Assembly (NCBI GenBank): GCA_963668025.2
Contig: CAXXTH010000023.1
Coordinates: forward strand, 96,001 to 160,000
DNA: 64,000 nt
DNA from: Candidatus Hydrogenedentota bacterium
GTDB lineage: Bacteria; Hydrogenedentota; Hydrogenedentia; Hydrogenedentales; SLHB01
Direction: 5' to 3'
Below, piece after piece: positions 29,884 to 63,864 of the stretch (position 1 is the first letter of the stretch; the number at the start of each line of letters is the position of its first letter). Both the position numbers and the translations under genes were made by a program. Below the pieces are notes generated by a model. That model was not told the origin of the DNA and ran no database searches. It worked only from the letters and a program-made list of their open reading frames with translations.

Positions 29884-30178
29884 GGATCGACTCCTTCTGA
29901 TATACATATCCTTCCACAAGGCATGATTCCACCCTTGATGGATAGACAGCTTCGAATGAGGAATGATAATACGCTTAGTCCTTAAGGATCAATCGAGACA
30001 CATCCATTCCAGCGGTGAAGAATAGCGGCGCCCCAGGGTCAGGCGTTGAGGTGATGCGGGTTAGACGGGGGGTGGCGAGGCCGACAGGCGACAGGAGGGG
30101 CAGCGGCTGTGCGTAAAGCCGGTGAATGGATGGGCGAGACGTGTAGGGCGGCGGCGCAACCGGGAACGCGCGGGCGCC

Positions 30179-31615
30179 CTATGCGGAACTGAAGCGGATC
30201 TGGATGGCCTCGGTGCAGAGGGCGTCATATTGTTCGCGGGACAGGGTGGCGTTGCGCAGGGCTTCGAGGAGGCGATGGGCAAGGTTTCTGGCGGAGCCAA
30301 AGCCTTTTGGAAAGTGGGCGGCCAGAAGGCTGCCATCCTCCAGGAGTTGCATGAGCAGATGGGCTATCTGCATCAAGAGGTAGTAGATCTTGCTGGCCTG
30401 TTCGTTTTGGGTATAGGCGTGTTCGAGGTTGTAGCCGCCGTTTTTCTGCACGTTGAATGCTTCATTTTCAATCTTCCAGCGTAAGCGTCCTCCTTCATTG
30501 GCCAAGGCGGCCGCATTGTGCGCGGATACGGATACGTTGGTCACCCATTTGAACTTGGTTTTCTTTATCATGCCTTCCGCGTCCGGGCGGGTGTCCACGC
30601 ATTCGAGCACGGACAGGATGTGTTCACGCCGCTCGGAATCGCGGTAGGGGATGTCGTTGACCCAGCGAAACTGCTGGTGGATTTCCTTCTTGTTGCCGCA
30701 ACGCCACGTAAGCTGGTTTTCGGGCGTCGCGGCCGCGAGGCTCTCGAATTCTTCGTTCACGGTGGCCAATTGGCCGTCCGTGAGCGTAATCATGAACTTC
30801 CAGCCATATTGCTGGCACAGCCGAAACACCGGTCCCGTGGCGTACAGGCCGTCCATCGCCAACAGCAGCGGCAAGCGGGGGAATCGGGCATGCAGGCGTG
30901 GGGCCAGCCGGTAGAAGGCTTTGGTCTCGCAATCCTGCTTGCGTTGTTGCTCGCTTTTCGCCAGGTCTTTCTCTGGATTCTCAATGAACTCCGTCATGAG
31001 CGAAAAGACCCACCCGTTTGGCGTGACGATCTTGGACTCCAGCACGGGATGGTAGTAGGTGATCTTGCCGCTCTTGTGCTTGCGCGTGAGGCAATGGGCG
31101 CAGTGGCGATGATCATAACTGCGTGTCCCCGTGGCGTCGATGGCCGCCACGTAGTAGCGCCCGAACAGGCGGTGGGGGTACAACACCTTCTTGTCGATGA
31201 GCGTCTGCGTCATGCCGGAAACGAGTTCCTGGACCGCCTCGAACGGCAAACCGCGAAATACCCCGTTCATCGTATCGCCATGCGGCACGCTGTCCACGTC
31301 AAACAAGACCTTGTACAGATGGACCATGAACGTCGTGTACAACTGCAGGCGGACTTGCCGGCGCGCCCCGAGCCGGCATGCGAACATCAGCACTCCCAAG
31401 AACACCAGCGACGCGACACTGTAGTCCACGTCGCCGGCTTGCTCGGGTTTGCGGGGATCGGGCAAGCCCGCAAAGCGCTTGCGCACCGGGCCAAAGAAGT
31501 GGGTGAACGTCCTCAAGAAGGCCCGGATGATTTCCGGATGCTCTTCTTGCGGGTTTGCAGGAACTGCCGTTGGGCCGCGCCCATGGCCTCGACGAGCTTC
31601 TTGAGCTTTTTCCAT
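30179..31615 (-). CDS. DDE transposase (IS4-like/ISNCY-like; family not firmly assigned)
   Basis: AAIDATG, LAMDGLY, RLRWKIENEAFNVQK; HCAHC insertion. Confidence 0.9.
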   Translation of the reverse strand: MEKAQEARRGHGRGPTAVPANPQEEHPEIIRAFLRTFTHFFGPVRKRFAGLPDPRKPEQAGDVDYSVASLVFLGVLMFACRLGARRQVRLQLYTTFMVHLYKVLFDVDSVPHGDTMNGVFRGLPFEAVQELVSGMTQTLIDKKVLYPHRLFGRYYVAAIDATGTRSYDHRHCAHCLTRKHKSGKITYYHPVLESKIVTPNGWVFSLMTEFIENPEKDLAKSEQQRKQDCETKAFYRLAPRLHARFPRLPLLLAMDGLYATGPVFRLCQQYGWKFMITLTDGQLATVNEEFESLAAATPENQLTWRCGNKKEIHQQFRWVNDIPYRDSERREHILSVLECVDTRPDAEGMIKKTKFKWVTNVSVSAHNAAALANEGGRLRWKIENEAFNVQKNGGYNLEHAYTQNEQASKIYYLLMQIAHLLMQLLEDGSLLAAHFPKGFGSARNLAHRLLEALRNATLSREQYDALCTEAIQIRFSSA

Positions 31616-31860
31616 TCCTCAATCCATTGCGCCACTTCGCGGCGCAATTCACGGGGCACGTGGAGGGTGCGGGTCTTCCCGCCCTCCTTCCACGTCAGCA
31701 GGGCCGTTTCATGGATCGGCCCTTCCTGGACGCACCGGCAGCGCGGGTTCCCGCAGCGGCTGCGGGTGATGGTGAGCGTGGCGGGAAGAAAGGGCCCCAG
31801 ACGCGCCAGGCGCGCCTGGACCTTGCGTCCCGCCGAGTTCGTGACAGGTTTCCCTTCCAT
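31513..31860 (-). CDS. DUF6788-like Cys/His-rich IS accessory protein
   Basis: SRCGNPRCRCVQEGPIH...WKEGGKTRTLHVP; overlaps the transposase ORF by 103 nt. Confidence 0.75.
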   Translation of the reverse strand: MEGKPVTNSAGRKVQARLARLGPFLPATLTITRSRCGNPRCRCVQEGPIHETALLTWKEGGKTRTLHVPRELRREVAQWIEEWKKLKKLVEAMGAAQRQFLQTRKKSIRKSSGPS

Positions 31861-31886
31861 GTACGGAAGTATATATACTTCCGTAC
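31861..31886. promoter_or_regulatory. Perfect 26-bp palindrome abutting the accessory ORF start (candidate operator)
   Basis: GTACGGAAGTATATATACTTCCGTAC; same in copy 2 at 63580-63605. Confidence 0.6.
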
Positions 31887-32002
31887 CAGAAGTCAACAAA
31901 AAAAAGCGCCGATGCGAAGAAAAAACTCCCCGCACCGGCGCATCCTCAACTCATTCAACTGCTTCTACGCGAAAAAAAAGCGGTTCTTCACCGCTGAATC
32001 GT

Positions 32003-32407
32003 TTATGCTTTCGCCTCTGGTTCATTCCAAAAACGGACAAGAGCGGCTAACAGCTCCTTTGGGCCAATCGGTTTGTTGAGGAAGGCGTTAAAACCGGCCT
32101 TTTGGCATGCATCTGCTTCATCAGGATCTATGCTGGCCGTGAGAGCCACAAGGGGAAGATTCTCGAATTCCTCCATGGAGCGAATGCGTTTTGCCGCCTC
32201 CAGGCCATTCATGACCGGCATTCGAATATCCATGATGACGAGCTCGGGACGTTCCGATTGGGTGAGAGAGACGGCCTCCGCTCCATTACGCGCCACTAAA
32301 ACCTGATATTCGCCAATTTCTAGATATTCGGTGAACAGGAATATGTTCACTTCATTATCTTCAGCGAGCAAGATTTTCCGTTTCTTTGGATAATGGACTA
32401 CAGCCAT
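32003..32407 (-). CDS. Single-domain response regulator (CheY/DivK-like)
   Basis: ILLAEDN, IMDIRMPVMNG, ALTA, FLNKP. Confidence 0.92.
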   Translation of the reverse strand: MAVVHYPKKRKILLAEDNEVNIFLFTEYLEIGEYQVLVARNGAEAVSLTQSERPELVIMDIRMPVMNGLEAAKRIRSMEEFENLPLVALTASIDPDEADACQKAGFNAFLNKPIGPKELLAALVRFWNEPEAKA

Positions 32408-32729
32408 TATTCGCCTCTCTTACGAAAGGCCGCTTTGCGCGGAACAGGATTCCGCAAACATTGCGGCGTTTGAATGTTAGGCCAGCTCTTAGGGATTTCC
32501 GCCCACCATATAGTTCAGGCTGCTCAATGTTCTAAGATGAGTGTACCGTATTTTTATATGAATTGAGAAATCCGCCTTAATCGACATCATTTTATTGTGC
32601 TTTATGATGCATTCATATCCGCTCAAACAGGATACCTTGTGTTTATGAGTGCAATGCAAATCCTCCAATACCACCGCATCCGGAAAAAAGGCAGGGCATA
32701 TCTGAAACGCCATCCCCCACATTTTATGA

Positions 32730-32804
32730 GAATGAGCCACAAAAGACGTAAAAGATACAAAAATGAATTGTTCTTGCGTCTTTTGCGCCTCTTGAGGCTA
32801 ATTC
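32730..32804. repeat. Periodic hairpin element (3 x 9 nt arms)
   Basis: GAATGAG CCACAAAAG ACGTAAAAG ATACAAAAA ... TTCTTGCGT CTTTTGCGC CTCTTGAGG CTAATTC. Confidence 0.75.
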
Positions 32805-32948
32805 GGGAAAAGTTCTATTGCCTTATTCGCATAAACGATCTAGAGTAAGCGTGCATACAGTTTCAACTATAGGATATGGGCCTATTGGCTCACGGGGAGC
32901 TTCTTTTCGGGTGGGCGGCAGGCTCGCGAATTAATGGGAGGAGAAGAA

Positions 32949-33740
32949 ATGGGTAAGCAGTTACGCCGGTATGTGCCTCTTTTTTGCATCGTAGGGTGTT
33001 GGTTTTTGCTGACAGCCTGCCCTTGCACAGGAATTAGCTACAGCCTATTTAATTATCTGCCAGCGGATATTGGCAATAGCTGGATCTATGGCTGCAACTC
33101 AGCTAATTCCGAGGTTACAGCAGAAGAATATGTCGCCAACGAAGGCATGTCAACACAATTTAAGATTATGTCTAAAGGCGTGGTGAATAACCATTCCGTG
33201 TGGCTCGTGGAAAATAGAGATAGTTTGTCGTTGGAGAATGAGAACTTCCAAGCCTACTATTTCTTCTATCAAGATGGCGTAATGTATTATACATTAAGCC
33301 TGGATGTGATCCGCGCCCTGCCGGAACTGACGACTCCCGCGACCAATACGACAGAGACGCTGTATGTAGCGTATCCATTTGTCCACTTGGACTTAACTCC
33401 GCGCACAATTACCGACGCCACGGACCCCCTGGTGATAGAAAACAATGGGAATCCCGTGCGTTATGTACGGGGGGCATTCGCGGATTTCTTCCCTATGGCC
33501 CTCAATCCCTATATAAATGATGGCAGCCTTACTATTGAATCTTTTGCCGCGGGAGTGCAAGGGTGGGAAGACTGCATCGCCCTTGAGAAATTTGTACCCA
33601 CCGAGGTCAAGAAAGACGAGGGCGAGTGGTATATCGAGATGATTTTTGGACGTGATTTGGGTCCGATGATGATTGATTGGTATATGCCTGTCTTATCGGG
33701 CGATATTTGTGGCGGTTTTCCAGAGATAATTGAAAATTAG
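32949..33740 (+). CDS. Hypothetical lipoprotein
   Basis: Signal peptide ending in LTAC (lipobox); GGAGGAG RBS. Confidence 0.65.
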   Translation: MGKQLRRYVPLFCIVGCWFLLTACPCTGISYSLFNYLPADIGNSWIYGCNSANSEVTAEEYVANEGMSTQFKIMSKGVVNNHSVWLVENRDSLSLENENFQAYYFFYQDGVMYYTLSLDVIRALPELTTPATNTTETLYVAYPFVHLDLTPRTITDATDPLVIENNGNPVRYVRGAFADFFPMALNPYINDGSLTIESFAAGVQGWEDCIALEKFVPTEVKKDEGEWYIEMIFGRDLGPMMIDWYMPVLSGDICGGFPEIIEN

Positions 33741-33780
33741 AAGAAGCGTCTTATTTTAAGAGAGACGGTCGAAACAGATA

Positions 33781-33819
33781 AAAAGGCAAGGCGGACTAGA
33801 AAATTCGGCCTTGCCTTTT
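33781..33819. terminator. Bidirectional intrinsic terminator
   Basis: AAAAGGCAAGGC...GCCTTGCCTTTT between convergent genes. Confidence 0.7.
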
Positions 33820-33832
33820 CTGTTATAACGAC

Positions 33833-34504
33833 CTACGGCTGCACGACTTCACGCCCCACGAACCACTCAGCGCCATGTATCTGCCCCGCAGGCAGATGGC
33901 CGCGCCGGGCCTCCGCGAATGCGGGGGCTTTATCGGCTCCGCTAACCAAGAACCATTTGCGCTTGGCCGCATTCAATACGGGAAATGTCAGCGTAATCCG
34001 GGGCGGCTCGAGCTGGGGAGCCTCATTGCGCACGGCTAGCCGCTGGGTTTCCCCAAGCGCGTGCGTTCCAGGGAATAGGGAAGCCGTATGCCCATCCGCG
34101 CCCATGCCCAGGAGTACGAGATCAAAGACCGGCATGCCTGCGGCGTTCATAAGCAGCTTAGCGCGCAAAAGCTGTTCATAATCCTCCGCAGCCCTTTCGC
34201 GTTCTGCCTCCATCCGGAACGCCTTTACGGGAGGCACATGCGCCAGCAATTCATGGAGGAGCATCCTCCAGTTAGATCGAGGATCCGAGGGGGAAACACA
34301 GCGTTCATCCACCTGGTAAAACGATAATGCATTCCAGGGTATGCGCGCTCGATATTCCGCCGCAAGGAGGGAATAGAACGTGGCGGGCGTCCGGCCGCCA
34401 GACACCGCGACCGTGCATGTATCGCCCCGGCTTGCGAATTCTGTAAAACGCAAGGCCATTTCGGCGGCGGGATCATCGCTTATATGGAGTAGCATATCTT
34501 CCAT
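33833..34504 (-). CDS. pgl: 6-phosphogluconolactonase
   Basis: AVSGGRTP, VDERCV..DPRSN, LGMGADGHTASLFP; exact start uncertain. Confidence 0.93.
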   Translation of the reverse strand: MEDMLLHISDDPAAEMALRFTEFASRGDTCTVAVSGGRTPATFYSLLAAEYRARIPWNALSFYQVDERCVSPSDPRSNWRMLLHELLAHVPPVKAFRMEAERERAAEDYEQLLRAKLLMNAAGMPVFDLVLLGMGADGHTASLFPGTHALGETQRLAVRNEAPQLEPPRITLTFPVLNAAKRKWFLVSGADKAPAFAEARRGHLPAGQIHGAEWFVGREVVQP

Positions 34505-34691
34505 CCGTACAAAATTCAGCTCTTTTGACAAAAAAGCTCGACCGGTTGAAAATACACCAAATAACAGCCCAAGGGAAACTGCCGCGCTTGAAGCCGCACG
34601 CGCACTCGGTTATAAGAACGGTGCGGATGGAGGCGGGATGTGATAGACCATCCGCTATCTTGAGAAACATTGAAAATGGAGTAAACGTTTC

Positions 34692-36131
34692 GTGGCTTCC
34701 ACGCCATTCACAGATGCGGCGATCATGGCCCTCTTGCGCCGTTTTAATCCATGGTGGAGCGGCGGATATCCGGCTGCACTGCCTGCGGCGCGTCGCAGCG
34801 TGTTTCAAACGTTATGGGAGCGCGTCTACGCCCAAGACGGGCCGCCGGTGCTTTTATTAAGCGGCCCGCGCGGCGCGGGTAAAACCACGCTGCTCCAGCA
34901 ACTGGCGGCGGAACTCCTCAAGAGTGGGGCCCCTCCGTTATATGTCCTGTATGCGCCCATCGAGCACCCCCTTTTCAAGCTTGCGGGGCTCGAGGCCATC
35001 ATGCGGGCATGGTCCGCCGCCACGCCCAAGGCGGGCGATACGCTGTATTTGCTGCTGGATGAAATCGAGTATGCGAAAAACTGGGAGGCCTGGCTTGCGC
35101 ATCATGCCCGGGCGGGGCTTAAATGCCGCATCATCGCGGCGGCGTCCGTGTTGCCACCCGCTGAAAAAGCGAATGCGGAATCGCCATGGCCGGTTTTGCG
35201 CATATCCTCGCTCTTGTTCGCGGACTATCTGCGCCTGCAAAATGCCCTGCCCCGGGGGCTGCCTTCTGGGCAAAATCTGCGGGAACTCTTTGCTTGGGAC
35301 GCGGGCGCGTTCGAGGCGGTGGCGGTGGCGGCCTATCCGCTGGCGGCGCAATTCCACGATTACCTCCTTCGAGGCGGTTTCCCAGGCGTGAGTTTCCAGC
35401 GCGAATTGGCGTCCGTACAGGCGGATCTGCGCGGGGTGATTATCGACCGCATACTCAAGGGCGATCTTGCGGCGATATACGGCGTGCGGAGCATCGCCGA
35501 ACTCGAACACTTATACCTAGAGCTGTGCGCCCACGATGGAGAGCCCGTGGATATCCTGGAATTAAGCGAACGGCTGGGCGTTTCCAAAAATACGGTGCGC
35601 AAGCATCTGGAGCTGCTGGCGTCGGCTCATTTGATCTGCCAGACGCCCCAGTTCGGTTACGGCAGCGAAGTGCTGCGCGGGCATATGAAAATATGCCTGT
35701 CTGATCCGGCTCTCGGATTTGCCATGCATGCCCGGGGCCGCGAGGCGCTCGAGGATGACGCCCGCATGCTCGGGGCCGCTGAGTCTTGCGTTTTCAAGCA
35801 CTTGTATGCGCGGGACGCCTGGGGCGGGCCTGCTTATTCGTATTGGCGGCTGCGCACGGGCGAGCATGTCAGCTTCATCGCCACGGGCGGTGCGGGAAAA
35901 AGCAGGCCCTTCCATGTCGTCGAAGGCGACAATGGCCTCGACCCCGCCGCATTGGCCGGCCTGCGCCGGTTTTGCGCGGATAAGCAAGTGCCGATGGCCT
36001 ACGTCATCACGCGCAGGCTCGATGATTTCGGCCCCGCGGCTCTCCCCGGGCCGGGCCGGGCATCAAAGGAAAAACTGGCCACGCAGTGCATGCGGATACC
36101 TGCGGCGCTGTTTTGTTATTGGATGTCTTAA
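34692..36131 (+). CDS. AAA+ ATPase (AAA_14 + DUF4143-like)
   Basis: Walker A GPRGAGKT, Walker B LLLDEI, YLLRGGFP, HTH-like GVSKNTVRKHL. Confidence 0.85.
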   Translation: MASTPFTDAAIMALLRRFNPWWSGGYPAALPAARRSVFQTLWERVYAQDGPPVLLLSGPRGAGKTTLLQQLAAELLKSGAPPLYVLYAPIEHPLFKLAGLEAIMRAWSAATPKAGDTLYLLLDEIEYAKNWEAWLAHHARAGLKCRIIAAASVLPPAEKANAESPWPVLRISSLLFADYLRLQNALPRGLPSGQNLRELFAWDAGAFEAVAVAAYPLAAQFHDYLLRGGFPGVSFQRELASVQADLRGVIIDRILKGDLAAIYGVRSIAELEHLYLELCAHDGEPVDILELSERLGVSKNTVRKHLELLASAHLICQTPQFGYGSEVLRGHMKICLSDPALGFAMHARGREALEDDARMLGAAESCVFKHLYARDAWGGPAYSYWRLRTGEHVSFIATGGAGKSRPFHVVEGDNGLDPAALAGLRRFCADKQVPMAYVITRRLDDFGPAALPGPGRASKEKLATQCMRIPAALFCYWMS

Positions 36132-36203
36132 CGTAGCATGGGCGTCCCGCCCATGAAAAATGTGCTAGAGCCAATGTTTCATGGGCGGGACGCCCATGCT
36201 ACG
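36132..36203. repeat. REP-like (GTAG-type) inverted doublet
   Basis: CGTAGCATGGGCGTCCCGCCCATG...CATGGGCGGGACGCCCATGCTACG directly after the ATPase stop codon. Confidence 0.85.
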
Positions 36204-36247
36204 GGAGCAGGTTGAAGCGGGGTTTTTATTGACAAATCAAGGAGCAT

Positions 36248-36781
36248 ATGATGCAAGAAGAATCCAAACTGCTGGTGGCGGTCATCATGGGAAGCAAATC
36301 GGATTGGGAGACCATGAGCCCGGCTTCAGAGGTGTTGTCCGAATTCGGCGTGCCCCATGAATGCCGCGTGCTGTCGGCCCATCGCACGCCCGAGGCGTTG
36401 TTTACCTTCGTAGCGGATGCGGAAGCGCGTGGATGCGAAGTGTTCATCGCGGGCGCGGGCGGCGCGGCCCACCTCGCGGGGGTCATCGCCGCGCACACCC
36501 TCCGCCCCGTGCTGGGCGTGCCCATCGAGAGCAAACTCCAAGGGCTCGATTCACTGTTGTCCACCGTGCAAATGCCGGGCGGCATCCCCGTGGGCACGCT
36601 GGCCATTGGCCGTGCGGGGGCCACTAATGCCGCGCTGCTGGCGGCGGCCATCCTGGGCAACAGCCGTCCCGAGTTGCGCGAACAACTCCGCACCTACCGT
36701 GCGAAACGAGCGGAGGCCATTCTGAATGAGACATTGCCGCCCGCTGGCGCGCCAAAAGGATTTATATCGTCTTCCCGGTGA
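36248..36781 (+). CDS. purE: N5-CAIR mutase
   Basis: IMGSKSD, SAHRTP, AGAGGAAHL, STVQMPGG. Confidence 0.96.
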   Translation: MMQEESKLLVAVIMGSKSDWETMSPASEVLSEFGVPHECRVLSAHRTPEALFTFVADAEARGCEVFIAGAGGAAHLAGVIAAHTLRPVLGVPIESKLQGLDSLLSTVQMPGGIPVGTLAIGRAGATNAALLAAAILGNSRPELREQLRTYRAKRAEAILNETLPPAGAPKGFISSSR

Positions 36782-37166
36782 GTATCACTTTCTCTGCAAA
36801 CAAAACAGTGTAATGACACGTGAGGCAAGGTCTCAGATGGCTTTGCCTCGTTTGTTCTTATCATATGCCCGCATTAAATACCAAATTAACATATTTATTA
36901 TTAAATTATTTTACAATATTTCGTCAATATATATCCGCTGTATACTCAAAAGTGTAAATCTATATTGAATAAGCAAAATTAAAATTTCGTAATCTTATTG
37001 GCATAAACGGGATTCCATATGGTACAAACCCGTTTGGGTGGGGATGATGGTTTTTCTTGATTGCATGCCGGGGTAGTCGTGCTTCTCGGGAGTCTAGATG
37101 AAGTTTATTTGAGGTGCGGCTATGCGGAACAAGGCTTTAGCGAGCCTAAAAGAAGAGGGAAACACT

Positions 37167-40100
37167 ATGCGTTGTACAAAGCCAGCAAGATTGTTTGGGG
37201 CGGTGGAGTATGGAAAGTCATTTTGGTTGATGGCTTCGCTTGTTATTTTTATTGCATCGCCGGGCCTGGAGGCGCATGCAACGGGTCTTGCATTGAGCGG
37301 GCGGGTGCAGCTTGATGGAGCAGGATTGAGCGGCGTCACCATGACGCTGAGCCGGACGGGGGCGGCGGATCAGGTATACACCACGAGCACCGATGGTTCG
37401 TATCAATTCACGGGCATCGCTTCCGCCAACTACACGCTCACCCCGAGTTTGGCGAAGCATGCGTTTAAGCCCGCCCAGATAAGCTATGCGCCACTGGCTC
37501 AAAGCCAGACAAATCAAAATTTTACGGCATCGAAGGCGTATACAATTAGCGGGAATGTATCACTTGAGGGCGGGGATGTGACCCAAGTGGAGATGGTGTT
37601 ATCGGGAGATGCGTCACAAACGGTTTATCCCGACTCCACTGGCGCATATGCCTTCACTAACCTGGCCGCTGGTGGATATGTCATTAAGCCCAAGCTTACT
37701 GGTGCTGTGTTTACGCCTGCGTCAAAAACGTATACGGATTTGGCCGCGGACCAAAGCGGCCAGGATTTTGTGGGAGATGCGTTGCATCAGATCACGGGAA
37801 AAGTGGCCAAAGATAGCGCAGGGCTTTCCGGGGTGGTGATGACCCTTAAGCAAACCGGGGCCGCGGATCGTGTCTATACGACGGGGCAAAATGGCGTGTA
37901 TGTGTTCGAGAGCCTGCCCACTGCGGAATACACCCTTGCACCGGCCAAAGCCAGCCATGTCTTTACGCCGGAGCAACGGGCATATGCGCCGCTGCTGGCG
38001 GATCAGACGGATCAGAATTTCGAAGCGCAGGAAGTGTATAGCATAAGCGGAACGGTGGTTTTGTCAGACGGCGGCGATGTGGCGCAAGTGGCGCTGGCGC
38101 TCACCGGCGACGCCGCTCGCACCGTGTATCCAGATGCATCGGGCGCATATGTTTTCGAGCAGCTTCCCGCTGGGAATTACACGGTAACACCCACGATGGC
38201 GGGCTGCACCTTCACGCCAGAGCAGCGGTGTTATGAAGGGCTTGCCGCAAGCCAGACAGGCCAGGATTTCCAGGGCAATAACCTGCACAGCATCACGGGA
38301 CACGTGTTGAAGGATGGCGCGGGGCTTGCCGGTGTCACGATGACTCTCCGCCAAACAGACGGCGCGGACCAGGTGTACGCCACGACCGGAGAGGGCGTAT
38401 TTGTCTTTAACAATGTCCCTACAGGCGATTACACGCTTACACCCAGCCTGGAAAATCATTCTTTCACACCGGAATTGCGGTCGTATGCGCCGCTCGCACA
38501 GGACGAGCTCGGCCAAGATTTTGAAGCCTTCGCGACCTATGCCATTCGAGGGATTGTAAGCCTGACGGATGGCGGCGATGTGGCCGCAGCCAAGGTGGTC
38601 CTGTCGGGCGACAAGGATGCGGAGGTTGCGCCAGATGAAGAAGGCGCATATGCCTTCACCGATCTCGAACCGGGCAATTATGAGGTCAAAGCCGTATTGC
38701 GCGGGTATCGATTCGAGCCGGAATTGGAGCAGTTTGCCCCGCTTGAATCGGATGAGGAAGGTGTAGACTTTGAAGGCGTCCGCGCCTATGGCGTCTGTGT
38801 GCCGTTTTTCCAAGACAATGCGCCTGCGGAAGGCCGCGTACCCGGCAGCCGGGGCAACCAGTCGTTTATTGGAGTGAAAAACCTTTCCGGCGAACCGAAT
38901 ACGCTGACGATTCACTACACGAATCAAAATGGAGAAGACCGCACGCCAGAAGCCAACACCTATGTGTTGAATGCATATGAGGGGCTTTCGTGGAGGCCAT
39001 GCCGCCAGGATGCAAACATTGAAGGCGTCGCGGCCGCCATTCCCGACATGACGGAAGAGTTTATTGGAAGCGCCTTGGTGTGGTCGACAGGCCCCGTGGC
39101 GGGGCGCATGCTCTTTGTGTCGGCCAATGGCTCGGAAAGCGCCTATACCTTGCCGGGTATTGAAGGCTCGGAACAAGTGGTGGCGCCGTTCTTCATGGAT
39201 TCATCACCCACCAACGGCACGGTGTTCCCCGGTACAGGCATGTCCACTTACCTTGGCGTGTTGAATATGGACAGCTCGGACATGGAAGCGCAGCTTCGGG
39301 TGTGGTACTCGAATTCGGCTAGTGTAGATCAAACGCCGGAAGAGAATTGCTTCACACTGGGAAGCTGGCTGGGCATTTCATGGCGGCCAGGAAAAGATGA
39401 TCCGAATCTCGAGGGCCATGGCGCGGCAGTGCCCAATATGATGTCCGGCGGCGTAGGCAGCGCGGTGGTCACGGGAGGCAAGTATCTTGCGGGCCGCGTG
39501 TTGTGCATGGCCTCGACTGGGGCGCAATATGCCTATACGATGAGTGGAGAAGGCTCGGAAGACCTCGTGGTTCCGTTCTTCATGGACAACGCCCCGGTGG
39601 AAGGCAAGCTCATTCCGAGTTCAGGCGACGCCACGTATATTGGGGTGAAGAACCTTTCGGCCGAACCCGTGACACTCACCATCCGGTATGCCAATATAAG
39701 CAATCTGGATGTAACGCCTGCCGTAAACACGTACGTGCTGGCGGCGAACGGCGCGGTATCGTGGCGTCCAAGCAAGAATGCTCCATTGCTTGAAGGCGTT
39801 GCAGTGAATGTGCCCGACATGGCGGCTGGCGTGGGCGGCAGCGCGGTTATCACTGCAACCGGGCCTATCGCGGGCCGCTTGCTCACGATAGCAACGAATG
39901 GCTCGATGAGCGCCTATACCCTTCGAAGCGCTGAAGGCGCAAAGACAGTAGTCGCCCCCTTCTTCCAGGACAACGCCCCAGCCGATGGCGCGTATCCGCC
40001 CGTGACAAATGCGGCGTCCTTTATCGGGATAAAAAACCTCACGGCGGAACCCGTGACGCTCACCATCCGGTATGCTAATGGCGCGGGAACCGACCGCACT

Positions 40101-40322: not shown

Positions 40323-40337
40323 GTCATTTGTTTATAC

Positions 40338-40382
40338 ACACGCCGCCCGGATTCCCTCACAGGGAGCCGGGCGGCGTGTTTT
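40338..40382 (+). terminator. Intrinsic terminator
   Basis: ACACGCCGCCCGG...CCGGGCGGCGTGT followed by TTT. Confidence 0.75.
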
Positions 40383-40563
40383 AACGTGGTTTTTCGATGT
40401 GCTTCAGCTTGAGCGCCTGATGCTAAAGCGTTTCGAGAAGACACGTTAAAGAGCACTACTTAAATAGTCCTTACCATCAGAACACACCAACTGAAGCCGG
40501 ATGCCAAAAAGAACCTACTCAAGCAGGCTAAAAAGATGGGGCCTGTTGCATACAATCTTGAGC

Positions 40564-40624
40564 CACTCAATACCTCACTCAATACCCCCAAACCCAAGAC
40601 CCTAAACCCAAGACCCTAAACCCT
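40564..40624. repeat. Short tandem repeats (2 x 12 nt, then 5 x 7 nt)
   Basis: CACTCAATACC(T/C) x2; AAACCCA AGACCCT AAACCCA AGACCCT AAACCCT. Confidence 0.7.
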
Positions 40625-40694
40625 ATTTGCACCTCATGGCCATCCTTTGGCAATATAGCCGTTCATTGGATGAGAAAGAAAATGGAGAAGTTTC

Positions 40695-56206: not shown

Positions 56207-57288
56207 AGGTGGAAATCGCCTGCGGCTTCAGGCTGGTAGAGAAGCGCTTTCACCAAATACCGGCGAGGAAGCGGGTTCGCGTTGGTCTCGACGATGTCAT
56301 TAATGCGGCTTCCGAGGAGCCGTGTGCCTAAGGGCGACAATATCGAGATATTTTCCTTTTTAGAAGCGGCGTCGCGTGGGAACACGAGCCGGCAGGTTTC
56401 TTCCATACCTGTATCTGCGTTTTGCAATTGCACGACGGAATGCATGGTAATAAGGTCACCTGGCACTTCGTGAGGGCTGACGACTTTCGCACTTGCCAAG
56501 CGTATTTCTAGTTCTTGCAGAAAAGCGCGCGTCTTTTCGTTTCCAAAATCATGGGCCACATGGATCAACTCGCGGAGCCGTTCTAAGTCAAACCGGCTGA
56601 TATGGATAGAGCGTTCCATAGCCTCGCCGGCCTTTTCCGCGGGAATGGCCCCTATCGTTTGAAGGGTCACGGGGCTCAAGTGCATATGTACGATATGGCG
56701 CGCGATGTCGTCCAGCGAGCCCGATTGGCCAGGCCGCTCCCAATAAGCCATGAACACCTGGATGGCCGCTTCCAGGCTCAAAGTTAGGTGCAGCGGCACG
56801 ACTCCAATAAGGCGTTTACGTTCGATCACCCGCCGGAAAAGCCCTTCTATAAGATGCACATATTCCCGGTAGAGCGCTTCCACATGATGCGGCAAACTGC
56901 TCGGATCGGGCAGCACCCCAGCATGGCCTTCCGCTGAAAATGCTTGAAAGAACAGCCGGTCCTTGGTGAAGTTGTATAGCCGCAGCTTGACGGCTTCCCC
57001 CATGGCTTGCTCCGGATCCATTCCCTGGCTGGCGGCTTGCTTGGTCCGGCGCAATACGGCAATCCCGATCCGGGCGATCACCTCCGCATAAATCCCCTCT
57101 TTATCGCGAAACAGGTTATATAGCGTTCCCACGGAATACCCGGATTCCCGGGCAATATCGTCCGTGGTGGTTAAGAAATACCCACGCGTCGTAAACAGCT
57201 TGTCGGCGGCATCAAGAATGACTTCCCGTTTGAGGGCCTTGTCTTTTTCCCGGCGTGAACCATTGTCGTGTAGGGAAATAGAATGCAT
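56203..57288 (-). CDS. TetR-family regulator fused to an Rnk (GreA/GreB-like) domain
   Basis: N-terminal ILDAADKLF..RGY..TTTDDIARESGYSVGTLYNLFRDKE; C-terminal ISRFDLERL...VPGDLITMHS...LVFP...ISILSPLG..LLG...YQPEAAGD. Confidence 0.9.
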   Translation of the reverse strand: MHSISLHDNGSRREKDKALKREVILDAADKLFTTRGYFLTTTDDIARESGYSVGTLYNLFRDKEGIYAEVIARIGIAVLRRTKQAASQGMDPEQAMGEAVKLRLYNFTKDRLFFQAFSAEGHAGVLPDPSSLPHHVEALYREYVHLIEGLFRRVIERKRLIGVVPLHLTLSLEAAIQVFMAYWERPGQSGSLDDIARHIVHMHLSPVTLQTIGAIPAEKAGEAMERSIHISRFDLERLRELIHVAHDFGNEKTRAFLQELEIRLASAKVVSPHEVPGDLITMHSVVQLQNADTGMEETCRLVFPRDAASKKENISILSPLGTRLLGSRINDIVETNANPLPRRYLVKALLYQPEAAGDFHL

Positions 57289-57306
57289 GCCTGGGCCTCC
57301 TTGGCG

Positions 57307-57367
57307 TGAGCGAACACTCAGTTTATGAATATATACTCATCCTAAGCTTTAGGCATTCGCGTGTCAA
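57307..57367 (-). promoter_or_regulatory. Sigma70-type promoter with two candidate TetR operators
   Basis: TTGACA (57367-57362)-17 bp-TAGGAT (57344-57339); TGAG-N6-CTCA at 57307-57320 and TGAA-N6-CTCA at 57326-57339. Confidence 0.65.
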
Positions 57368-57438
57368 TTTTTTATATAGGATGAGACTGGGGCCCGAGAG
57401 GGAGATTATCATTACTAGTAACGTGAATTTTGGAGAGC

Positions 57439-57511
57439 CTCTTTGTGTCTTCATGGCTTTGTGGTGAATTTTTCCGGAGCTTTCACCATGAAGTCACGAA
57501 GACGCAAAGAG
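57439..57511. repeat. Periodic hairpin element (8-nt units, arms back to back)
   Basis: CTCTTTGTGTCTTCATGGCTTTGTGGTGAA ... TTCACCATGAAGTCACGAAGACGCAAAGAG; 30-bp stem with 5 mismatches. Confidence 0.8.
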
Positions 57512-57611
57512 TTCAAAGCGCTTTTCATGGGTATGCCATTTATACAAAAATATGTTTCTACGGTAGCTTGCTGCCGCTTTTATTAGCAATCTTCAGATTG
57601 CCGGTTCTATC

Positions 57612-58580
57612 TTACTGATTCTTTCTCGCACGTGTGCGGCATACCGTCCATAAGCCTGCCATGAGCATACACACAAGCGCCACGGGCCACTCGAGTGGCG
57701 CTTCTTGAGCATCTGGGCCTTCCCATCCGGCCAGGCGCGCCCAGAGCCACCATGCCGCGTAAGCTTTCCGGTTGGCGTTGAGCGGTTCGGTGTGCGCCGC
57801 GCCGCAGGAGTACCAATCGGTTCCTTCCGTGTGCGATGCCTGCCATTCCTGCGCCCAATTGCCTAGGGCGGTGGGGCTGTCGCCGTTGTCGTAATAGCTG
57901 CAATCGTCGCTGGCATACGGAAAATGCACGCCGTCAGGGTCATAACTTTCGATGTCCGAGAAGTCGAACAGCGTCTTGCCATTGGCGTTGCAGTAATCCC
58001 GGATGCGCTGGTTATTAGCGGTAATCGTGCCGTAGGACCAAATGTCCAAATGGCCGGTCATATAGACAAACCGCACACTCGGGAAATCCGTTTCGAGCTG
58101 GTTCATCTGGGAGAGATACAGGTCCACGTCCTCCGTGCTGGCCCAGCTCAATTCGCCGCACCACGACCACATCATCACGTTGATCTGGCTATTCGCAGGA
58201 TCCTCAAGATAGGCGTGCGTGGCCGTGTACCAGGTGGTGAAATCAGGATTGCCTAGGTCCTCCGCGCCGCCGGGAAAACCGCCGTAAAAATCGAATACCG
58301 TGAGTACACTGTTGCTGAGATCTCCCGATAAATCCACTGCATACAGGGATGGATCGTTCGGGGCGCCCGCAAATGTCTGTAATCCTTGCATGCCCTCGGT
58401 GATTTGGCTTCCATGCGAGGTATGGCCATACGCAATGCGAAGCGTTGATTTCGCCTGCTCGATGGCGCTCACCGGCACGCTCGCCAAATCTGTGCATGTG
58501 TGGTCAATGATGAGTTGCGCCATGGCTGGCACGCTAACGATTCCGCAAACAATCCCCGCGATCATACGAATGGTGAACAT
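57612..58580 (-). CDS. Secreted conserved hypothetical protein (possibly SGNH-like hydrolase) with C-terminal TM anchor
   Basis: Signal peptide; YGHTSHGSQ, MWSWCG, FVYMTGHLD, LFDFSDIES; C-terminus APLEWPVALVCMLMAGLWTVCRTRARK. Confidence 0.7.
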   Translation of the reverse strand: MFTIRMIAGIVCGIVSVPAMAQLIIDHTCTDLASVPVSAIEQAKSTLRIAYGHTSHGSQITEGMQGLQTFAGAPNDPSLYAVDLSGDLSNSVLTVFDFYGGFPGGAEDLGNPDFTTWYTATHAYLEDPANSQINVMMWSWCGELSWASTEDVDLYLSQMNQLETDFPSVRFVYMTGHLDIWSYGTITANNQRIRDYCNANGKTLFDFSDIESYDPDGVHFPYASDDCSYYDNGDSPTALGNWAQEWQASHTEGTDWYSCGAAHTEPLNANRKAYAAWWLWARLAGWEGPDAQEAPLEWPVALVCMLMAGLWTVCRTRARKNQ

Positions 58581-58932
58581 CCCGCACCTCCAGTATTCAA
58601 AAATGCTCCTACCCCAAATGTCCATGATCCCCAAACGGCCTGATCTGATTATACCATGTTGTTTTTCGGAAGGGGGGTAATACGGGGAAAGCTTCCTTAA
58701 AAAAAAGGTTTTCTCCGAATCATTTTCCAAGAATAATTTTTTTCCGTTTTGAAAAGCGGTAGTTCTTGGGGAATTCTGTTTACGAGGTGGACTTTTCCAA
58801 CAACTGGACCAGGCCAGCCAAAGCAGGGAAATACGGATGATGCGCGCGAAAAAGAGTACAATAAGGCACCGGCAGGTTGTGCGGTTTCTCTGCTACGTCT
58901 TGGCGATTTCGGACAACCATTCCATCCCACAG

Positions 58933-59072
58933 TCAGAGCTTGTCGAGTTCCTCAAGGCCTTTGATGAACTGTTCCGTCATCGGATAGGGGCCAGGATATT
59001 TGACATACTCCTGGTGGCCGTCCATGTAGAGGACATTGCCCCCGTCTGGAACGTGGTGGCCGGGACGTTCAA
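58933..59072 (-). pseudogene. 3' remnant of an H-X9-DG-CTERM (DUF1559-associated) gene cut by IS1380
   Basis: Manual translation ERPGHHVPDGGNVLYMDGHQEYVKYPGPYPMTEQFIKGLEELDKL*, beginning exactly at the IS end. Confidence 0.8.
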
Positions 59073-60763
59073 CCTAAAAAAGGCAGTAGGAACTTGCTTT
59101 GGGATTTTTCCAGCCCAATTTTGTAAAGAAATAACTGTCCTGGCCCGCTCTTTACGTTGGCGCCGGCAGCAGGTTGGGGGTGGCCAGCGGCCTTCCCTCG
59201 AGTATTTTGGCGAAGATCCGGCTGAGGATCGTCCGCCATCGTTCGTTCCAGTTCAACTGCCGCGCAGTTGCTTTCATCTCCAATAAAAAGGCGTTTACGG
59301 ATTTCAGAACTTGTTCCATAGCATGTCCTTGCGCATGCACGGGGGTGATGGTGAGCGTGGTTTGGCCTCCGTGGCGGGTCTGCTGTCCCACGCCGTAGAG
59401 CAGCAGAGGGCGGCTTGTGATCGCTTCGGCGTGGCGCTCCGGAATCGCCAAGCGCACGTACAAAGACCACCAATTGTAAATCAGGGCTATGATTCGCGCC
59501 ATGATTTGGCAGCGCTTCATATCGTGGGTGGTATACCCGCCCCACCCCCACTGGTTTTTCTGTTCATCGTAGATGTTTTCCGCATCGCCCCGGTCGCGAT
59601 AATGCTGGGCCAAGGCCGATAGGGGGTCTGTCAGCGAAGTGGCCAGCAGCGCGTATTCATACTGCTGCACGGCTCCCGCTTGGATCTCGATGAGCTGTAG
59701 TTGGGGGGAGGGGTCAGGCAATAGCGGCTCCGTTTCCAGAACGATACTCCCTTTGAGCTTGCGCCGCAGAACGATTACCCGGCGTTTGCTCGTCCATCCC
59801 ATAAGCTCCAGACGGTCTTCCAAACCTTCCCAGCCTTGGCCTGCTGGCGTCCAGTCCTTAGAACAAAAGGCCTGCTGGATAAGCCGTTTCACGTTGCTGG
59901 TCTGCCGCAATTTGAACAGATAGGGCACTCCGCGCGCTTCGGCTTCGCTCATGTCGCGTTCGTTGCCGAAGGCGCAGTCGCCGCGAATCATGCCCGGCCA
60001 GGCCGCGCGCGGCAAGCCATCGAGAAAATGCCACAATCCAGGCATGGTGTATTTCGCCGCCGTCTCGTTGCCCGGCCGGACTTCCACGTCCAGCACCAAG
60101 CGCGTGTTCGCCATAAAATAGGTATGCAGCACATGAGAAGGACGGCCCTGTTTCGCCGGATTGTAGCCCAGCACGGCCCCTTCTTGATGGCCGAACAGGG
60201 GCTTCACGCTTGTATCCACGTCCAAAATCCAAGGCTCATAAAGCAACGGCTCATAACAGCGGCGCAGGTGCTTCTGTAGCCAGCCCGCGCAGGCTTCCCC
60301 GTCCGCCAGTATAAATGCCCGCCGCGCCGAGGAGGCGCTCATGATCTTGCTCATACCCAGCAAGCCCGGGTTCACCGCGTCGTAACGGACCGCGTCAATG
60401 TGCGCATAGCGGGTGTGGCCCGCCAGCACTGATAAAAATAGCGTGCCCAGCACATCCCTCTTGCGCGGCGCATTATTGCTGGCGTACGCCAGCGGACAGT
60501 CCTCCACCCACGCTTCAAAAAGCTCCGCCGTCTTGAGGAAATCGATAAAGAACGCCAACTGGCCAAACGGCGTCGTTGCCGCCTCCCGGTCCCATTCCAC
60601 ATGCACCCGGCCCCCGTAGCTATCTACGAAAATCGGCACCTCCAAAGACAACCATTCCTCCTCTCCCAATGGGGGAGCATCTTGCTGTTGCGATTCTGTT
60701 TCCATGTTCTTTATCTTGAACTACTTCCTGCTCGACACTCAAGATTCAACTGGCGTTTTTAGG
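59073..60763 (-). mobile_element. IS1380-family insertion sequence (1691 bp)
   Basis: Imperfect IRs CCTAAAAAAGGCAGTAGGAACTTG vs CCTAAAAACGCCAGTTGAATCTTG (reverse complement of the right end), 19/24 identical. Confidence 0.85.
59152..60705 (-). CDS. IS1380-family transposase
   Basis: ILDVDTSV..FGHQEGA..GYN, IRGDCAF, YRDRGDAENIYDEQK. Confidence 0.88.
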   Translation of the reverse strand: METESQQQDAPPLGEEEWLSLEVPIFVDSYGGRVHVEWDREAATTPFGQLAFFIDFLKTAELFEAWVEDCPLAYASNNAPRKRDVLGTLFLSVLAGHTRYAHIDAVRYDAVNPGLLGMSKIMSASSARRAFILADGEACAGWLQKHLRRCYEPLLYEPWILDVDTSVKPLFGHQEGAVLGYNPAKQGRPSHVLHTYFMANTRLVLDVEVRPGNETAAKYTMPGLWHFLDGLPRAAWPGMIRGDCAFGNERDMSEAEARGVPYLFKLRQTSNVKRLIQQAFCSKDWTPAGQGWEGLEDRLELMGWTSKRRVIVLRRKLKGSIVLETEPLLPDPSPQLQLIEIQAGAVQQYEYALLATSLTDPLSALAQHYRDRGDAENIYDEQKNQWGWGGYTTHDMKRCQIMARIIALIYNWWSLYVRLAIPERHAEAITSRPLLLYGVGQQTRHGGQTTLTITPVHAQGHAMEQVLKSVNAFLLEMKATARQLNWNERWRTILSRIFAKILEGRPLATPNLLPAPT

Positions 60764-61322
60764 TTGAAAGGTTCTTCTCTTTACGGCGCTGCTTGTACGC
60801 CATCCACTCCTCCTCGCTTGCGCGCTTGCCAGGCTTCTTGGCGGGGGAAGACTCCTCGAAACGCACGGGCAAGGCGCGGCAACTAAAGGCGCCGCCTTGG
60901 TGAAGCGGTACGAGAAGGGAGGCCTGCAGGAAACGCAGGCCCAGAATGAGATTGGTGTGGAACGGCGGGGACAGGGGGTCGCGCTGATGAAAAGCCTGGA
61001 CAATGCACCGGCCGGTCTTGTGCAGCTTGGTATCATCGACGGCGACGCCTACAAGCGGGTCTTCACACTGGGGCAGGGCTCCTTCCCAAATAGGGTCGAA
61101 GAGCTGCTGGGGGTCCCACTTGGCGCGGCCGTACATGTGGTATTCAGCCTGCCACGGCAGATTCTCGCGACCACAGGCCCAAAGGGTCCGCGTGATTGTG
61201 CGCCGCCCCAAACAGACCAGTGACCCAAGTCCCTGCCGCACCGCACGCACGGTGGTGCGCTCTTGGGCAAAAGCATCGCGCCAGCGCTCGGTAACGTTGA
61301 GCCATTCGTGTAAAAGACTCAT
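60764..61322 (-). pseudogene. 5' fragment of an IS701-like (DDE_5) transposase truncated by IS1380
   Basis: AFAQERT..GRRTIT...VAVDDTKLHKTG...RDPLSPPF; reading frame ends within the IS1380 IR. Confidence 0.8.
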
Positions 61323-61654
61323 CGCTTGCCTCCTTTGAGTCCGAAGGTGTTCTTGTCCGCGCGGACAAAGCGGTCTTCCCGAGCCACCTTTTTGGTGAGG
61401 GAAGACACCAGGCTTTCCCGGTCCACCGTAATGCCGAAGACCGCATGAATGCGACTCAGGATCTCATTGACATGAAGGGGATGAGCGGCCCTCAAGAGTA
61501 TGTCATATGCCATATCTACTTGCGACATACTTGTTCTGGGTCGTGGCTCCTCCCTGGATTCTTCCCCCCTACGCAGACGGCGCACCGCCCGAAGCTGCGC
61601 CTCAAGCCCTTTTTCCATAGCCTCTAGGATCGTGTCACGCAATTCGTCATTCAT
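61319..61654 (-). CDS. Winged-helix (HARE-HTH-like) protein coupled to the IS701-like transposase
   Basis: AYDILLRAAHPLHVNEI...SLVSSL...FVRADKNTFGL; stop overlaps the transposase ATG (ATGA); GGAGG RBS. Confidence 0.75.
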   Translation of the reverse strand: MNDELRDTILEAMEKGLEAQLRAVRRLRRGEESREEPRPRTSMSQVDMAYDILLRAAHPLHVNEILSRIHAVFGITVDRESLVSSLTKKVAREDRFVRADKNTFGLKGGKR

Positions 61655-61682
61655 GGCGCTGCCCTCCTGCCTAGCCAACAAG

Positions 61683-61711
61683 ATTGTAGCACAAACGAGT
61701 CGGTATGTCAA
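61683..61711 (-). promoter_or_regulatory. Near-consensus sigma70 promoter
   Basis: TTGACA-17 bp-TACAAT with extended TG, upstream of the wHTH gene. Confidence 0.7.
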
Positions 61712-61897
61712 TATATCTTTTCAATGACCGGCGGTGAAGAATAGCGGCGCCCCAGGGTCAGGCGTTGAGGTGATGCGGGTTAGACGGGGGGTGGCGAGGC
61801 CGACAGGCGACAGGAGGGGCAGCGGCTGTGCGTAAAGCCGGTGAATGGATGGGCGAGACGTGTAGGGCGGCGGCGCAACCGGGAACGCGCGGGCGCC

Positions 61898-63334
61898 CTA
61901 TGCGGAACTGAAGCGGATCTGGATGGCCTCGGTGCAGAGGGCGTCATATTGTTCGCGGGACAGGGTGGCGTTGCGCAGGGCTTCGAGGAGGCGATGGGCA
62001 AGGTTTCTGGCGGAGCCAAAGCCTTTTGGAAAGTGGGCGGCCAGAAGGCTGCCATCCTCCAGGAGTTGCATGAGCAGATGGGCTATCTGCATCAAGAGGT
62101 AGTAGATCTTGCTGGCCTGTTCGTTTTGGGTATAGGCGTGTTCGAGGTTGTAGCCGCCGTTTTTCTGCACGTTGAATGCTTCATTTTCAATCTTCCAGCG
62201 TAAGCGTCCTCCTTCATTGGCCAAGGCGGCCGCATTGTGCGCGGATACGGATACGTTGGTCACCCATTTGAACTTGGTTTTCTTTATCATGCCTTCCGCG
62301 TCCGGGCGGGTGTCCACGCATTCGAGCACGGACAGGATGTGTTCACGCCGCTCGGAATCGCGGTAGGGGATGTCGTTGACCCAGCGAAACTGCTGGTGGA
62401 TTTCCTTCTTGTTGCCGCAACGCCACGTAAGCTGGTTTTCGGGCGTCGCGGCCGCGAGGCTCTCGAATTCTTCGTTCACGGTGGCCAATTGGCCGTCCGT
62501 GAGCGTAATCATGAACTTCCAGCCATATTGCTGGCACAGCCGAAACACCGGTCCCGTGGCGTACAGGCCGTCCATCGCCAACAGCAGCGGCAAGCGGGGG
62601 AATCGGGCATGCAGGCGTGGGGCCAGCCGGTAGAAGGCTTTGGTCTCGCAATCCTGCTTGCGTTGTTGCTCGCTTTTCGCCAGGTCTTTCTCTGGATTCT
62701 CAATGAACTCCGTCATGAGCGAAAAGACCCACCCGTTTGGCGTGACGATCTTGGACTCCAGCACGGGATGGTAGTAGGTGATCTTGCCGCTCTTGTGCTT
62801 GCGCGTGAGGCAATGGGCGCAGTGGCGATGATCATAACTGCGTGTCCCCGTGGCGTCGATGGCCGCCACGTAGTAGCGCCCGAACAGGCGGTGGGGGTAC
62901 AACACCTTCTTGTCGATGAGCGTCTGCGTCATGCCGGAAACGAGTTCCTGGACCGCCTCGAACGGCAAACCGCGAAATACCCCGTTCATCGTATCGCCAT
63001 GCGGCACGCTGTCCACGTCAAACAAGACCTTGTACAGATGGACCATGAACGTCGTGTACAACTGCAGGCGGACTTGCCGGCGCGCCCCGAGCCGGCATGC
63101 GAACATCAGCACTCCCAAGAACACCAGCGACGCGACACTGTAGTCCACGTCGCCGGCTTGCTCGGGTTTGCGGGGATCGGGCAAGCCCGCAAAGCGCTTG
63201 CGCACCGGGCCAAAGAAGTGGGTGAACGTCCTCAAGAAGGCCCGGATGATTTCCGGATGCTCTTCTTGCGGGTTTGCAGGAACTGCCGTTGGGCCGCGCC
63301 CATGGCCTCGACGAGCTTCTTGAGCTTTTTCCAT
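61898..63334 (-). CDS. DDE transposase (copy 2)
   Basis: Translation identical to 30179-31615. Confidence 0.9.
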   Translation of the reverse strand: MEKAQEARRGHGRGPTAVPANPQEEHPEIIRAFLRTFTHFFGPVRKRFAGLPDPRKPEQAGDVDYSVASLVFLGVLMFACRLGARRQVRLQLYTTFMVHLYKVLFDVDSVPHGDTMNGVFRGLPFEAVQELVSGMTQTLIDKKVLYPHRLFGRYYVAAIDATGTRSYDHRHCAHCLTRKHKSGKITYYHPVLESKIVTPNGWVFSLMTEFIENPEKDLAKSEQQRKQDCETKAFYRLAPRLHARFPRLPLLLAMDGLYATGPVFRLCQQYGWKFMITLTDGQLATVNEEFESLAAATPENQLTWRCGNKKEIHQQFRWVNDIPYRDSERREHILSVLECVDTRPDAEGMIKKTKFKWVTNVSVSAHNAAALANEGGRLRWKIENEAFNVQKNGGYNLEHAYTQNEQASKIYYLLMQIAHLLMQLLEDGSLLAAHFPKGFGSARNLAHRLLEALRNATLSREQYDALCTEAIQIRFSSA

Positions 63335-63579
63335 TCCTCAATCCATTGCGCCACTTCGCGGCGCAATTCACGGGGCACGTGGAGGGTGCGGGTCTTCCCG
63401 CCCTCCTTCCACGTCAGCAGGGCCGTTTCATGGATCGGCCCTTCCTGGACGCACCGGCAGCGCGGGTTCCCGCAGCGGCTGCGGGTGATGGTGAGCGTGG
63501 CGGGAAGAAAGGGCCCCAGACGCGCCAGGCGCGCCTGGACCTTGCGTCCCGCCGAGTTCGTGACAGGTTTCCCTTCCAT
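63232..63579 (-). CDS. DUF6788-like accessory protein (copy 2)
   Basis: Translation identical to 31513-31860. Confidence 0.75.
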   Translation of the reverse strand: MEGKPVTNSAGRKVQARLARLGPFLPATLTITRSRCGNPRCRCVQEGPIHETALLTWKEGGKTRTLHVPRELRREVAQWIEEWKKLKKLVEAMGAAQRQFLQTRKKSIRKSSGPS

Positions 63580-63864
63580 GTACGGAAGTATATATACTTC
63601 CGTACCAGAAGTCAACAAAAAAAAGCGCCGATGCGAAGAAAAAACTCCCCGCACCGGCGCATCCTCAACTCATTCAACTGCTTCTACGCGAAAAAAAAGC
63701 GGTTCTTCACCGCTGCATCCATTCAAGATTCCACGGAAACAGCCAAGCCTGGTTTTGCCTATGCCATGCTTCGGATTGGTTGTGCCTCGTGGGAAGGGCG
63801 TGATACCATGCCCTCCCTACCGGCGAAGAAGCATGCCCATTATACTTTGGAACGGATGAATTGA

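Follow-up and report, generated by a model that had tools for sequence, protein, structure and literature searches.

Exchange of target duplications among three insertion sequence copies and the setting of a 29.7-kb block of core genes between glyA and cmk

How did a block of core genes, among them the only alaS of its genome, come to lie between a pair of copies of one insertion sequence (IS)? The question is raised by a 64,000-nucleotide stretch of contig CAXXTH010000023.1 (here C23) of a Candidatus Hydrogenedentota bacterium; the whole of this stretch, positions 96,001 to 160,000 of the contig, is referred to as the window. In it, two directly oriented copies of a 1,987-bp IS enclose a passenger block containing alaS, purE, pgl, ruvX, mltG and mgtE, and the resulting unit occupies the region between glyA and cmk. 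An earlier note, made from the letters of the window, described the unit as an apparent 33.7-kb composite transposon of the Tn5/Tn10 type that had carried the block to this location. A target duplication present only at the outer ends of such a unit is often read as proof of composite transposition; the present case shows that this reading is unsafe. When all copies of the IS within the genome (assembly G000; 6.15 Mb in 24 contigs) are considered, the structure is probably the end product of homologous ("ectopic") recombination among three separately inserted IS copies, an explanation to which a probability of about 0.58 is assigned.

Three IS copies and their target duplications

The genome contains 17 full-length copies of the IS, one of which is interrupted by another insertion, and one fragment. 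The two copies in the window (copies 1 and 2, Table 1) differ at a single base, position 2 of the IS, where copy 1 has A and copy 2 has G (window position 61730); this G is unique to copy 2 among the full-length copies. The terminal inverted repeats (IRs) begin CAGCGGTGAAGAA, and the outer IRs of the two window copies are the same as those of the other 15. Two near-identical direct copies, with intact outer IRs and a mutated inner end on copy 2, are what the earlier note had described. A perfect 9-bp repeat flanks ten of the 17 copies, and an eleventh has flanks that match at 8 of 9 positions; three copies take part in an exchange, and the last three have flanks that do not match. Given the ten perfect repeats and the one with 8/9, 9 bp is the target duplication length of the IS itself, as the note had anticipated.

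The three exchanging copies carry halves of three duplications, designated a, x and y. In the window, copy 1 has a (CATCCATTC) on its left and x (AATCGTTTA) on its right, and copy 2 has y (TTCAATGAC) on its left and a on its right. As reported earlier, CATCCATTC is present only on the outer sides of the unit, and the inner flanks differ from each other. When the inner 9-mers were sought beside other IS copies, a check that the note had proposed, both were found at one and the same copy, located on contig C20 and flanked, in the IS orientation, by x to the left and y to the right. Each of the three 9-mers occurs once on a left flank and once on a right flank, always on different copies, and together they form a closed three-cycle; with all cross pairs of the 17 copies counted, ~0.001 matches of a 9-mer between left and right flanks would be expected by chance. 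Only this third copy, which a whole-genome search revealed, distinguishes composite transposition from recombination among three ordinary insertions.

Two of the duplications can be followed beyond the IS copies themselves. Immediately to the left of copy 2 lies the larger part of a different IS, designated IS-Z, and the other part adjoins the C20 copy. On the intact IS-Z of C23, the two parts (60762-61728 in the window and C20 17218-17109) overlap by exactly TTCAATGAC, and y is proven to be a real target duplication. The single, unduplicated target, by which ectopic recombination can be recognized, is known for y only, in the form of the intact IS-Z. Duplication x joins a GH2-type glycosidase gene, present on C20, to the response-regulator gene at the left end of the block. 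The two genes meet tail to tail with their stop codons 4 nt apart, and the joint looks like the native junction of convergent genes.

The closed exchange of duplications implies that, at the time of IS insertion, the glyA flank was contiguous with the cmk flank, and that the block earlier lay between the glycosidase gene and the remainder of IS-Z. Since the solo IS on C20 bears exactly both of the inner flanks, the block would have come from the C20 site. Given the assembly, target-duplication logic supports relocation of the block into the glyA-cmk spacer, and this portion of the earlier proposal stands. Copy 1 now lies ~90 bp upstream of the glyA frame and copy 2 ~156 bp upstream of cmk, and these distances place the original insertion in a divergent promoter region.

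Table 1. Coordinates of the unit, its parts, its neighbors and the third IS copy (window positions unless a contig is named)
Feature	Position	Strand	Remarks
glyA (glycine hydroxymethyltransferase)	28354..29919	-	left neighbor of the unit; NF010094, 805 bits (cut-off 735)
CATCCATTC, left half of duplication a	30001..30009
IS copy 1	30010..31996	+	1,987 bp; master haplotype; intact at both ends
Transposase ORF	30179..31615	-	478 aa; weak DDE_Tnp_1 and DDE_Tnp_1_assoc signals
Upstream ORF	31513..31935	-	140 aa; DUF6788; 103-nt overlap with transposase ORF
Passenger block	31997..61728		29,732 bp, between the IS copies
AATCGTTTA, right half of duplication x	31997..32005		holds the response-regulator stop codon
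IS with IS1380-family transposase	59066..60765	-	transposase of 517 aa; >20 copies in genome
IS-Z, left 967 bp	60762..61728		interrupted by IS copy 2; other 110 bp at C20 17218-17109
TTCAATGAC, left half of duplication y	61720..61728		single occurrence in intact IS-Z
IS copy 2	61729..63715	+	1,987 bp; inner (left) end altered at IS position 2
CATCCATTC, right half of duplication a	63716..63724
cmk (start)	63872..64000	+	continues beyond window end (full length 224 aa); TIGR00017, 234.5 bits (cut-off 135.55)
Third IS copy	C20:17219-19209		flanked by x and y

The copies also differ in haplotype. Seven of them, including copy 1, are identical end to end, and copy 2 departs from these only at position 2. 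The C20 copy, by comparison, departs from both window copies at five substitution columns of the alignment. At columns 524, 525, 558 and 570 it reads G, C, C and T, a haplotype that is common to two other copies; its A at column 1812 is unique, and it also shows some differences in homopolymer length. At all five columns, copies 1 and 2 carry the master haplotype. Because GCCT is common to two other genomic copies, these four bases are not new mutations. As for chimerism, copy 2 continues with master sequence after its unique G at position 2, and divergence of the C20 copy starts at column 524, a pattern that would be consistent with one crossover. Judging from the columns themselves, the simplest account would be that one diverged y copy (with the position-2 G, GCCT and the 1812 A) was divided by a crossover that fell somewhere from column 2 to column 524.

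Recombination, transposition or misassembly

The 9-mers exchanged among three copies, the division of IS-Z into two parts and the IS haplotypes are observed directly. From them we infer an order of events, a route, and crossovers carried out by host recombination. At the start, one IS copy would have been present in the glyA-cmk intergenic region, making duplication a; a second would have inserted between the convergent stops of the glycosidase and response-regulator genes, making duplication x; and a third would have inserted inside IS-Z, making duplication y. The 29.7-kb block would originally have had the x copy on one side and the y copy on the other, on the present contig C20. Two reciprocal crossovers within IS copies would then transfer the block to the glyA-cmk copy, and the old site would keep a single IS that carries x at the left and y at the right. 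The transfer could proceed through excision of a circle followed by its re-integration, through a sister chromosome with a transient duplication or, if one of the copies were inverted, through two successive inversions.

The combination of exchanged target duplications and chimeric copies is the accepted signature of ectopic recombination, as in the Galileo-mediated inversion 2z3 of Drosophila buzzatii (PMC2775673). The inversion resembles the present case in having near-identical copies at the breakpoints, duplications split between two copies, and one putatively chimeric copy. The single target from before duplication is known for the inversion, and here for one site (IS-Z). However, the inversion involves two copies, whereas here three copies take part in a cyclic exchange that gives a translocation, and the parental chromosome has not been observed in the present case.

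The explanation offered in the earlier note was that of a classical composite transposon, in which the entire IS-block-IS unit would have moved by means of its outer ends, with the donor site later collapsing to one IS. The structure itself is as the note described, and the unit does have the anatomy of a composite transposon. Like Tn5 and Tn10, it consists of two ISs around a passenger, with a 9-bp duplication only at the outer ends, which are intact, and one altered inner end; the unique position-2 change in copy 2 could disable that end. CAA is also present at -20 in the left flank of the a site, as it is at 9 of the 17 copies. Tn5 and Tn10, however, have inverted IS copies, whereas those in the window are direct. 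In addition, a composite transposon predicts that copy 2 represents the y copy in full and that the IS at the donor site combines copies 1 and 2 as a mosaic, predictions that the five columns contradict. Cut-and-paste leaves the donor site without an IS, yet the C20 site has one, and the haplotype of this solo IS is not derived from the flanking copies. A second copy of the block was not found in the genome. Only later gene conversion could rescue the model. The unit was not found at other sites or in other genomes, the block being single-copy and the transposase being represented by a weak fragment in 1 of 20 relatives (these relatives are the 20 nearest genomes, every one from another genus and heavily rearranged). 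Given the solo C20 IS and the five columns, transposition of the whole unit is very improbable. Nothing indicates that the unit moved as one, and essential genes travelling on a mobile element are not what this case shows.

An outer-only duplication equally marks recombination among three insertions or a cointegrate that has been resolved by recombination. In the latter process, the pseudo-compound route of the IS26/IS6 type, the x copy would transpose replicatively into the glyA-cmk spacer, perhaps that of a sister chromosome, to form a cointegrate with a new 9-bp duplication; the y copy would then recombine with the newly made one, and the block would be transferred while the donor keeps one IS. 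As in the pseudo-compound transposons of the IS26/IS6 type (PMC7986276), the flanking copies here are direct, the new duplication is on the outside only, and a single donor IS bears the inner flanks. The haplotypes would also fit: copy 1 would correspond to the x copy, which is of master type, copy 2 would carry the left tip of the y copy ahead of master sequence, and most of the donor IS would derive from the y copy, the crossover having fallen in the interval from column 2 to column 524. This route saves one event relative to three insertions and two crossovers. However, the transposase is not of the IS6 family and shows no IS6-family signal; its matches to Pfam DDE_Tnp_1 and DDE_Tnp_1_assoc are below the gathering scores, and the DDE_Tnp_1-type superfamily is known for cut-and-paste. 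Simple insertion with an intact duplication accounts for ten of the 17 copies, and overlapping units in an array were not seen. The passenger also differs, since it is made up of 29.7 kb of chromosomal housekeeping genes, whereas resistance genes are carried by the IS26/IS6 units, and the duplication is 9 bp rather than the 8 bp of the IS6 family (PMC7986276). On balance this route is unlikely, though it is the foremost competitor.

Because the transposase lacks IS6-family character, because most copies are simple insertions, and because the substrate for recombination is ample (there are dozens of copies of other ISs, and GC-skew flips on C23), we infer three insertions in preference to a cointegrate. 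Rearrangement driven by ISs occurs in IS-rich bacterial genomes, and the case would be a well-documented one of IS-mediated recombination in such a genome, by way of a previously unclassified IS. There is some chance, though a small one, that this unclassified IS moves large chromosomal segments in the manner of IS26, through a cointegrate or a translocatable unit, and that it brought the 29.7 kb of core genes, sole alaS included, to their present site while the donor kept one IS; if so, pseudo-compound transposition would take in a further lineage of ISs as well as essential genes of the chromosome. A translocatable unit with a single IS, made by intramolecular replicative deletion and followed by cointegration, was rejected, since it predicts three replicas and the three copies are not replicas.

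The same pattern could be generated if the assembly were in error. The true layout would then be glyA-IS-cmk and glycosidase-IS-block-IS-(rest of IS-Z), with three paths mis-threaded through the 2-kb repeat. All three of the exchanged joins do cross the same ~2-kb repeat, the unrearranged layout restores all three duplications together, short-read contigs of public runs leave the connectivity unconfirmed, and several of the 24 contigs have repeat ends. However, such an artefact needs three coordinated wrong joins, that is, a cyclic permutation and not one swap. Moreover, the 17 copies and many other ISs lie inside contigs with copy-specific substitutions and homopolymer differences, which suggests that the assembly used reads longer than the IS repeat. 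Synteny in four relatives (G016, G004, G011 and G013) also partly resembles the assembled order. Given that three coordinated errors would be needed and that many IS copies are resolved, the chance of a misassembly is about one in eight. Three concrete junctions are available for checking the assembly.

Several points weigh against recombination among three insertions. The joins through the three IS copies come from the assembly alone, and the Logan short-read contigs of four public runs stop ~30 bp inside the IS. In run X7, Logan contigs span 27962-30037, 30010-31996 and 31968-34500 and fit the assembled and the unrearranged orders equally; short-read contigs confirm every junction between a flank and the IS, not which flank joins which. 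The read depth of the IS (49 vs 5-7 in X7, with far higher ratios in X9) does not give copy numbers and was not used. A replicative cointegrate followed by recombination yields the same structure and the same haplotypes, and thus an earlier simple insertion between glyA and cmk is not required. The parental arrangement was not seen in any of the genomes examined, the 20 relatives being all of other genera. A free circle with the sole alaS would be lethal unless it were re-integrated or a second chromosome copy were present. Finally, the synteny of the relatives points both ways, and its hints are mutually contradictory.

Two relatives resemble the inferred earlier order. The earlier note had asked whether glyA and cmk are adjacent in relatives; they share a contig in 1 of 20 (G003), where cmk is 8 kb from glyA and the orientation is different. 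In G018, a 39%-identical glycosidase gene lies 3.3 kb from alaS. Other relatives resemble the present order. In G004, cmk and its downstream neighbor are 7 kb from alaS-ruvX-mltG, and in G011 and G013 the glycosidase gene adjoins a homologue of C20:3919-4929. In G016, alaS, relA, glyA and purE are found within 40 kb (C27:77000-116000), a cluster whose coincidence with the present order is without explanation and counts with the points above. G016 belongs to another family, and hardly any further gene of its C27 region is syntenic with G000. These arrangements are taken to mean that the genes all descend from one loose ancestral neighborhood, and that the duplication logic is not overturned. 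The 20-mer to the left of copy 1 gave a single match in a metagenome collection; its flanks were unrelated, and the match is due to chance. With recombination among three insertions, a recent rearrangement that can be reconstructed base by base put the sole alaS beside glyA and cmk; the case is ordinary in kind but unusually well reconstructible.

The IS and its other copies

Each of the window copies has two open reading frames (ORFs) on its minus strand, one for the transposase and the other, upstream of it, for a DUF6788 protein. With respect to the DUF6788 ORF, the transposase ORF is shifted to the -1 frame, and the region in which they overlap (31513-31615 in copy 1) contains an A5G run; the 478-aa ORF is open in the other full-length copies too. 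Such an overlap could represent a programmed frameshift, or the ORFs could encode two separate proteins. For the 478-aa product, the DDE_Tnp_1, DDE_Tnp_1_assoc and IS1380 signals are all sub-threshold (Pfam, NCBIfam), and its relatives, with 25-28% identity, are plasmid genes labelled ISNCY family transposase or hypothetical protein. Given the sub-threshold family signals and the ISNCY-labelled relatives, the element is considered an unclassified IS. A search for the transposase in the 20 relatives found it in only one, as a weak fragment; the many identical copies in this genome and the near-absence from the relatives indicate a recent, lineage-specific expansion of the IS.

The left flanks of the 17 copies share a short motif at positions -20 to -18, where C is present in 13, A in 12 and A in 14 copies, respectively. 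The full CAA at -20 is found at 9 of the 17 (~0.27 expected), and the right side lacks a mirror motif. In the window, the corresponding sites are 29990-29992 and 61709-61711. In three IS copies, GGCCTGC is present straight after the target duplication.

For the three copies without a matching duplication that lie outside the exchange, no flank partners were found, except that the right flank of the copy at C20:11826 is common with that of the copy at C18:330306. For the former (C20:11826-13812), identity to C18:332578-335486 is 99.9% across the right part of the IS, GACACGCTG and the 1.8-kb IS next to it; the latter is the interrupted IS copy (C18:330306-333670), and GACACGCTG flanks it on both sides. 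This pair is a second recombination or conversion event with the 1,987-bp IS.

The block and its surroundings

The block contains genes for a response regulator, pgl, an AAA/DUF4143 ATPase, purE, a 1,066-aa protein, alaS, a GxxExxY protein, ruvX, mltG, mgtE, a 1,743-aa protein and a TetR-GreA-like fusion, and then a nest of ISs. The gene identities given in the earlier note hold, since glyA, pgl, purE, alaS, ruvX, mltG, mgtE and cmk each beat a curated NCBIfam cut-off. The size of 33.7 kb holds for the unit as a whole (33,706 bp without the 9-mers); the passenger is smaller (Table 1), and its right 2.7 kb is the nest, composed of two other ISs. In the genome, the block occurs once, save for the nest and for a single short match near 46.6-47.0 kb, and alaS has one match. 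Short-read depth at the start of the block is 5.4, compared with 7.4 on the glyA side, and is thus not raised. Recombination between copies 1 and 2 would delete the sole alaS. Because alaS is single-copy, loss of the block should be lethal, whereas its duplication is possible.

Within the block, a 58-nt direct repeat, 86% identical, is present just upstream of the GxxExxY gene (43436-43493) and of ruvX (44004-44061). The ORF for the 1,066-aa protein (37122-40322) contains, within 38867-40079, three 58-nt copies that are 71-84% identical and spaced by 771 and 384 nt; their arrangement points to repeated domains of what may be a large secreted-type protein.

Outside the unit, relA and glyA are found on the left and cmk on the right. 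The genome is saturated with ISs: at least four other IS types of 1.7-1.9 kb are each present in ~10 to >30 copies with >99% identity. These are partly nested in each other (for example, at C20:34600-40287) and end several contigs. Cross-matching of target duplications was dropped for four other IS types because of fuzzy boundaries and seemingly too-short duplications. On C23, GC skew switches sign each 50-100 kb; a comparison of skew between the block and its flanks was uninformative, the skew being patchy across the entire contig. Between relA and glyA (window 27734-27998) lies a short palindromic repeat, composed of inverted repeats I1 and I2, which is also present at 17194-17252. At 27734-27998 it coincides with many contig joints and has a short-read depth of ~200, compared with 7 on neighboring sequence, which suggests that it is a high-copy REP- or MITE-like element.

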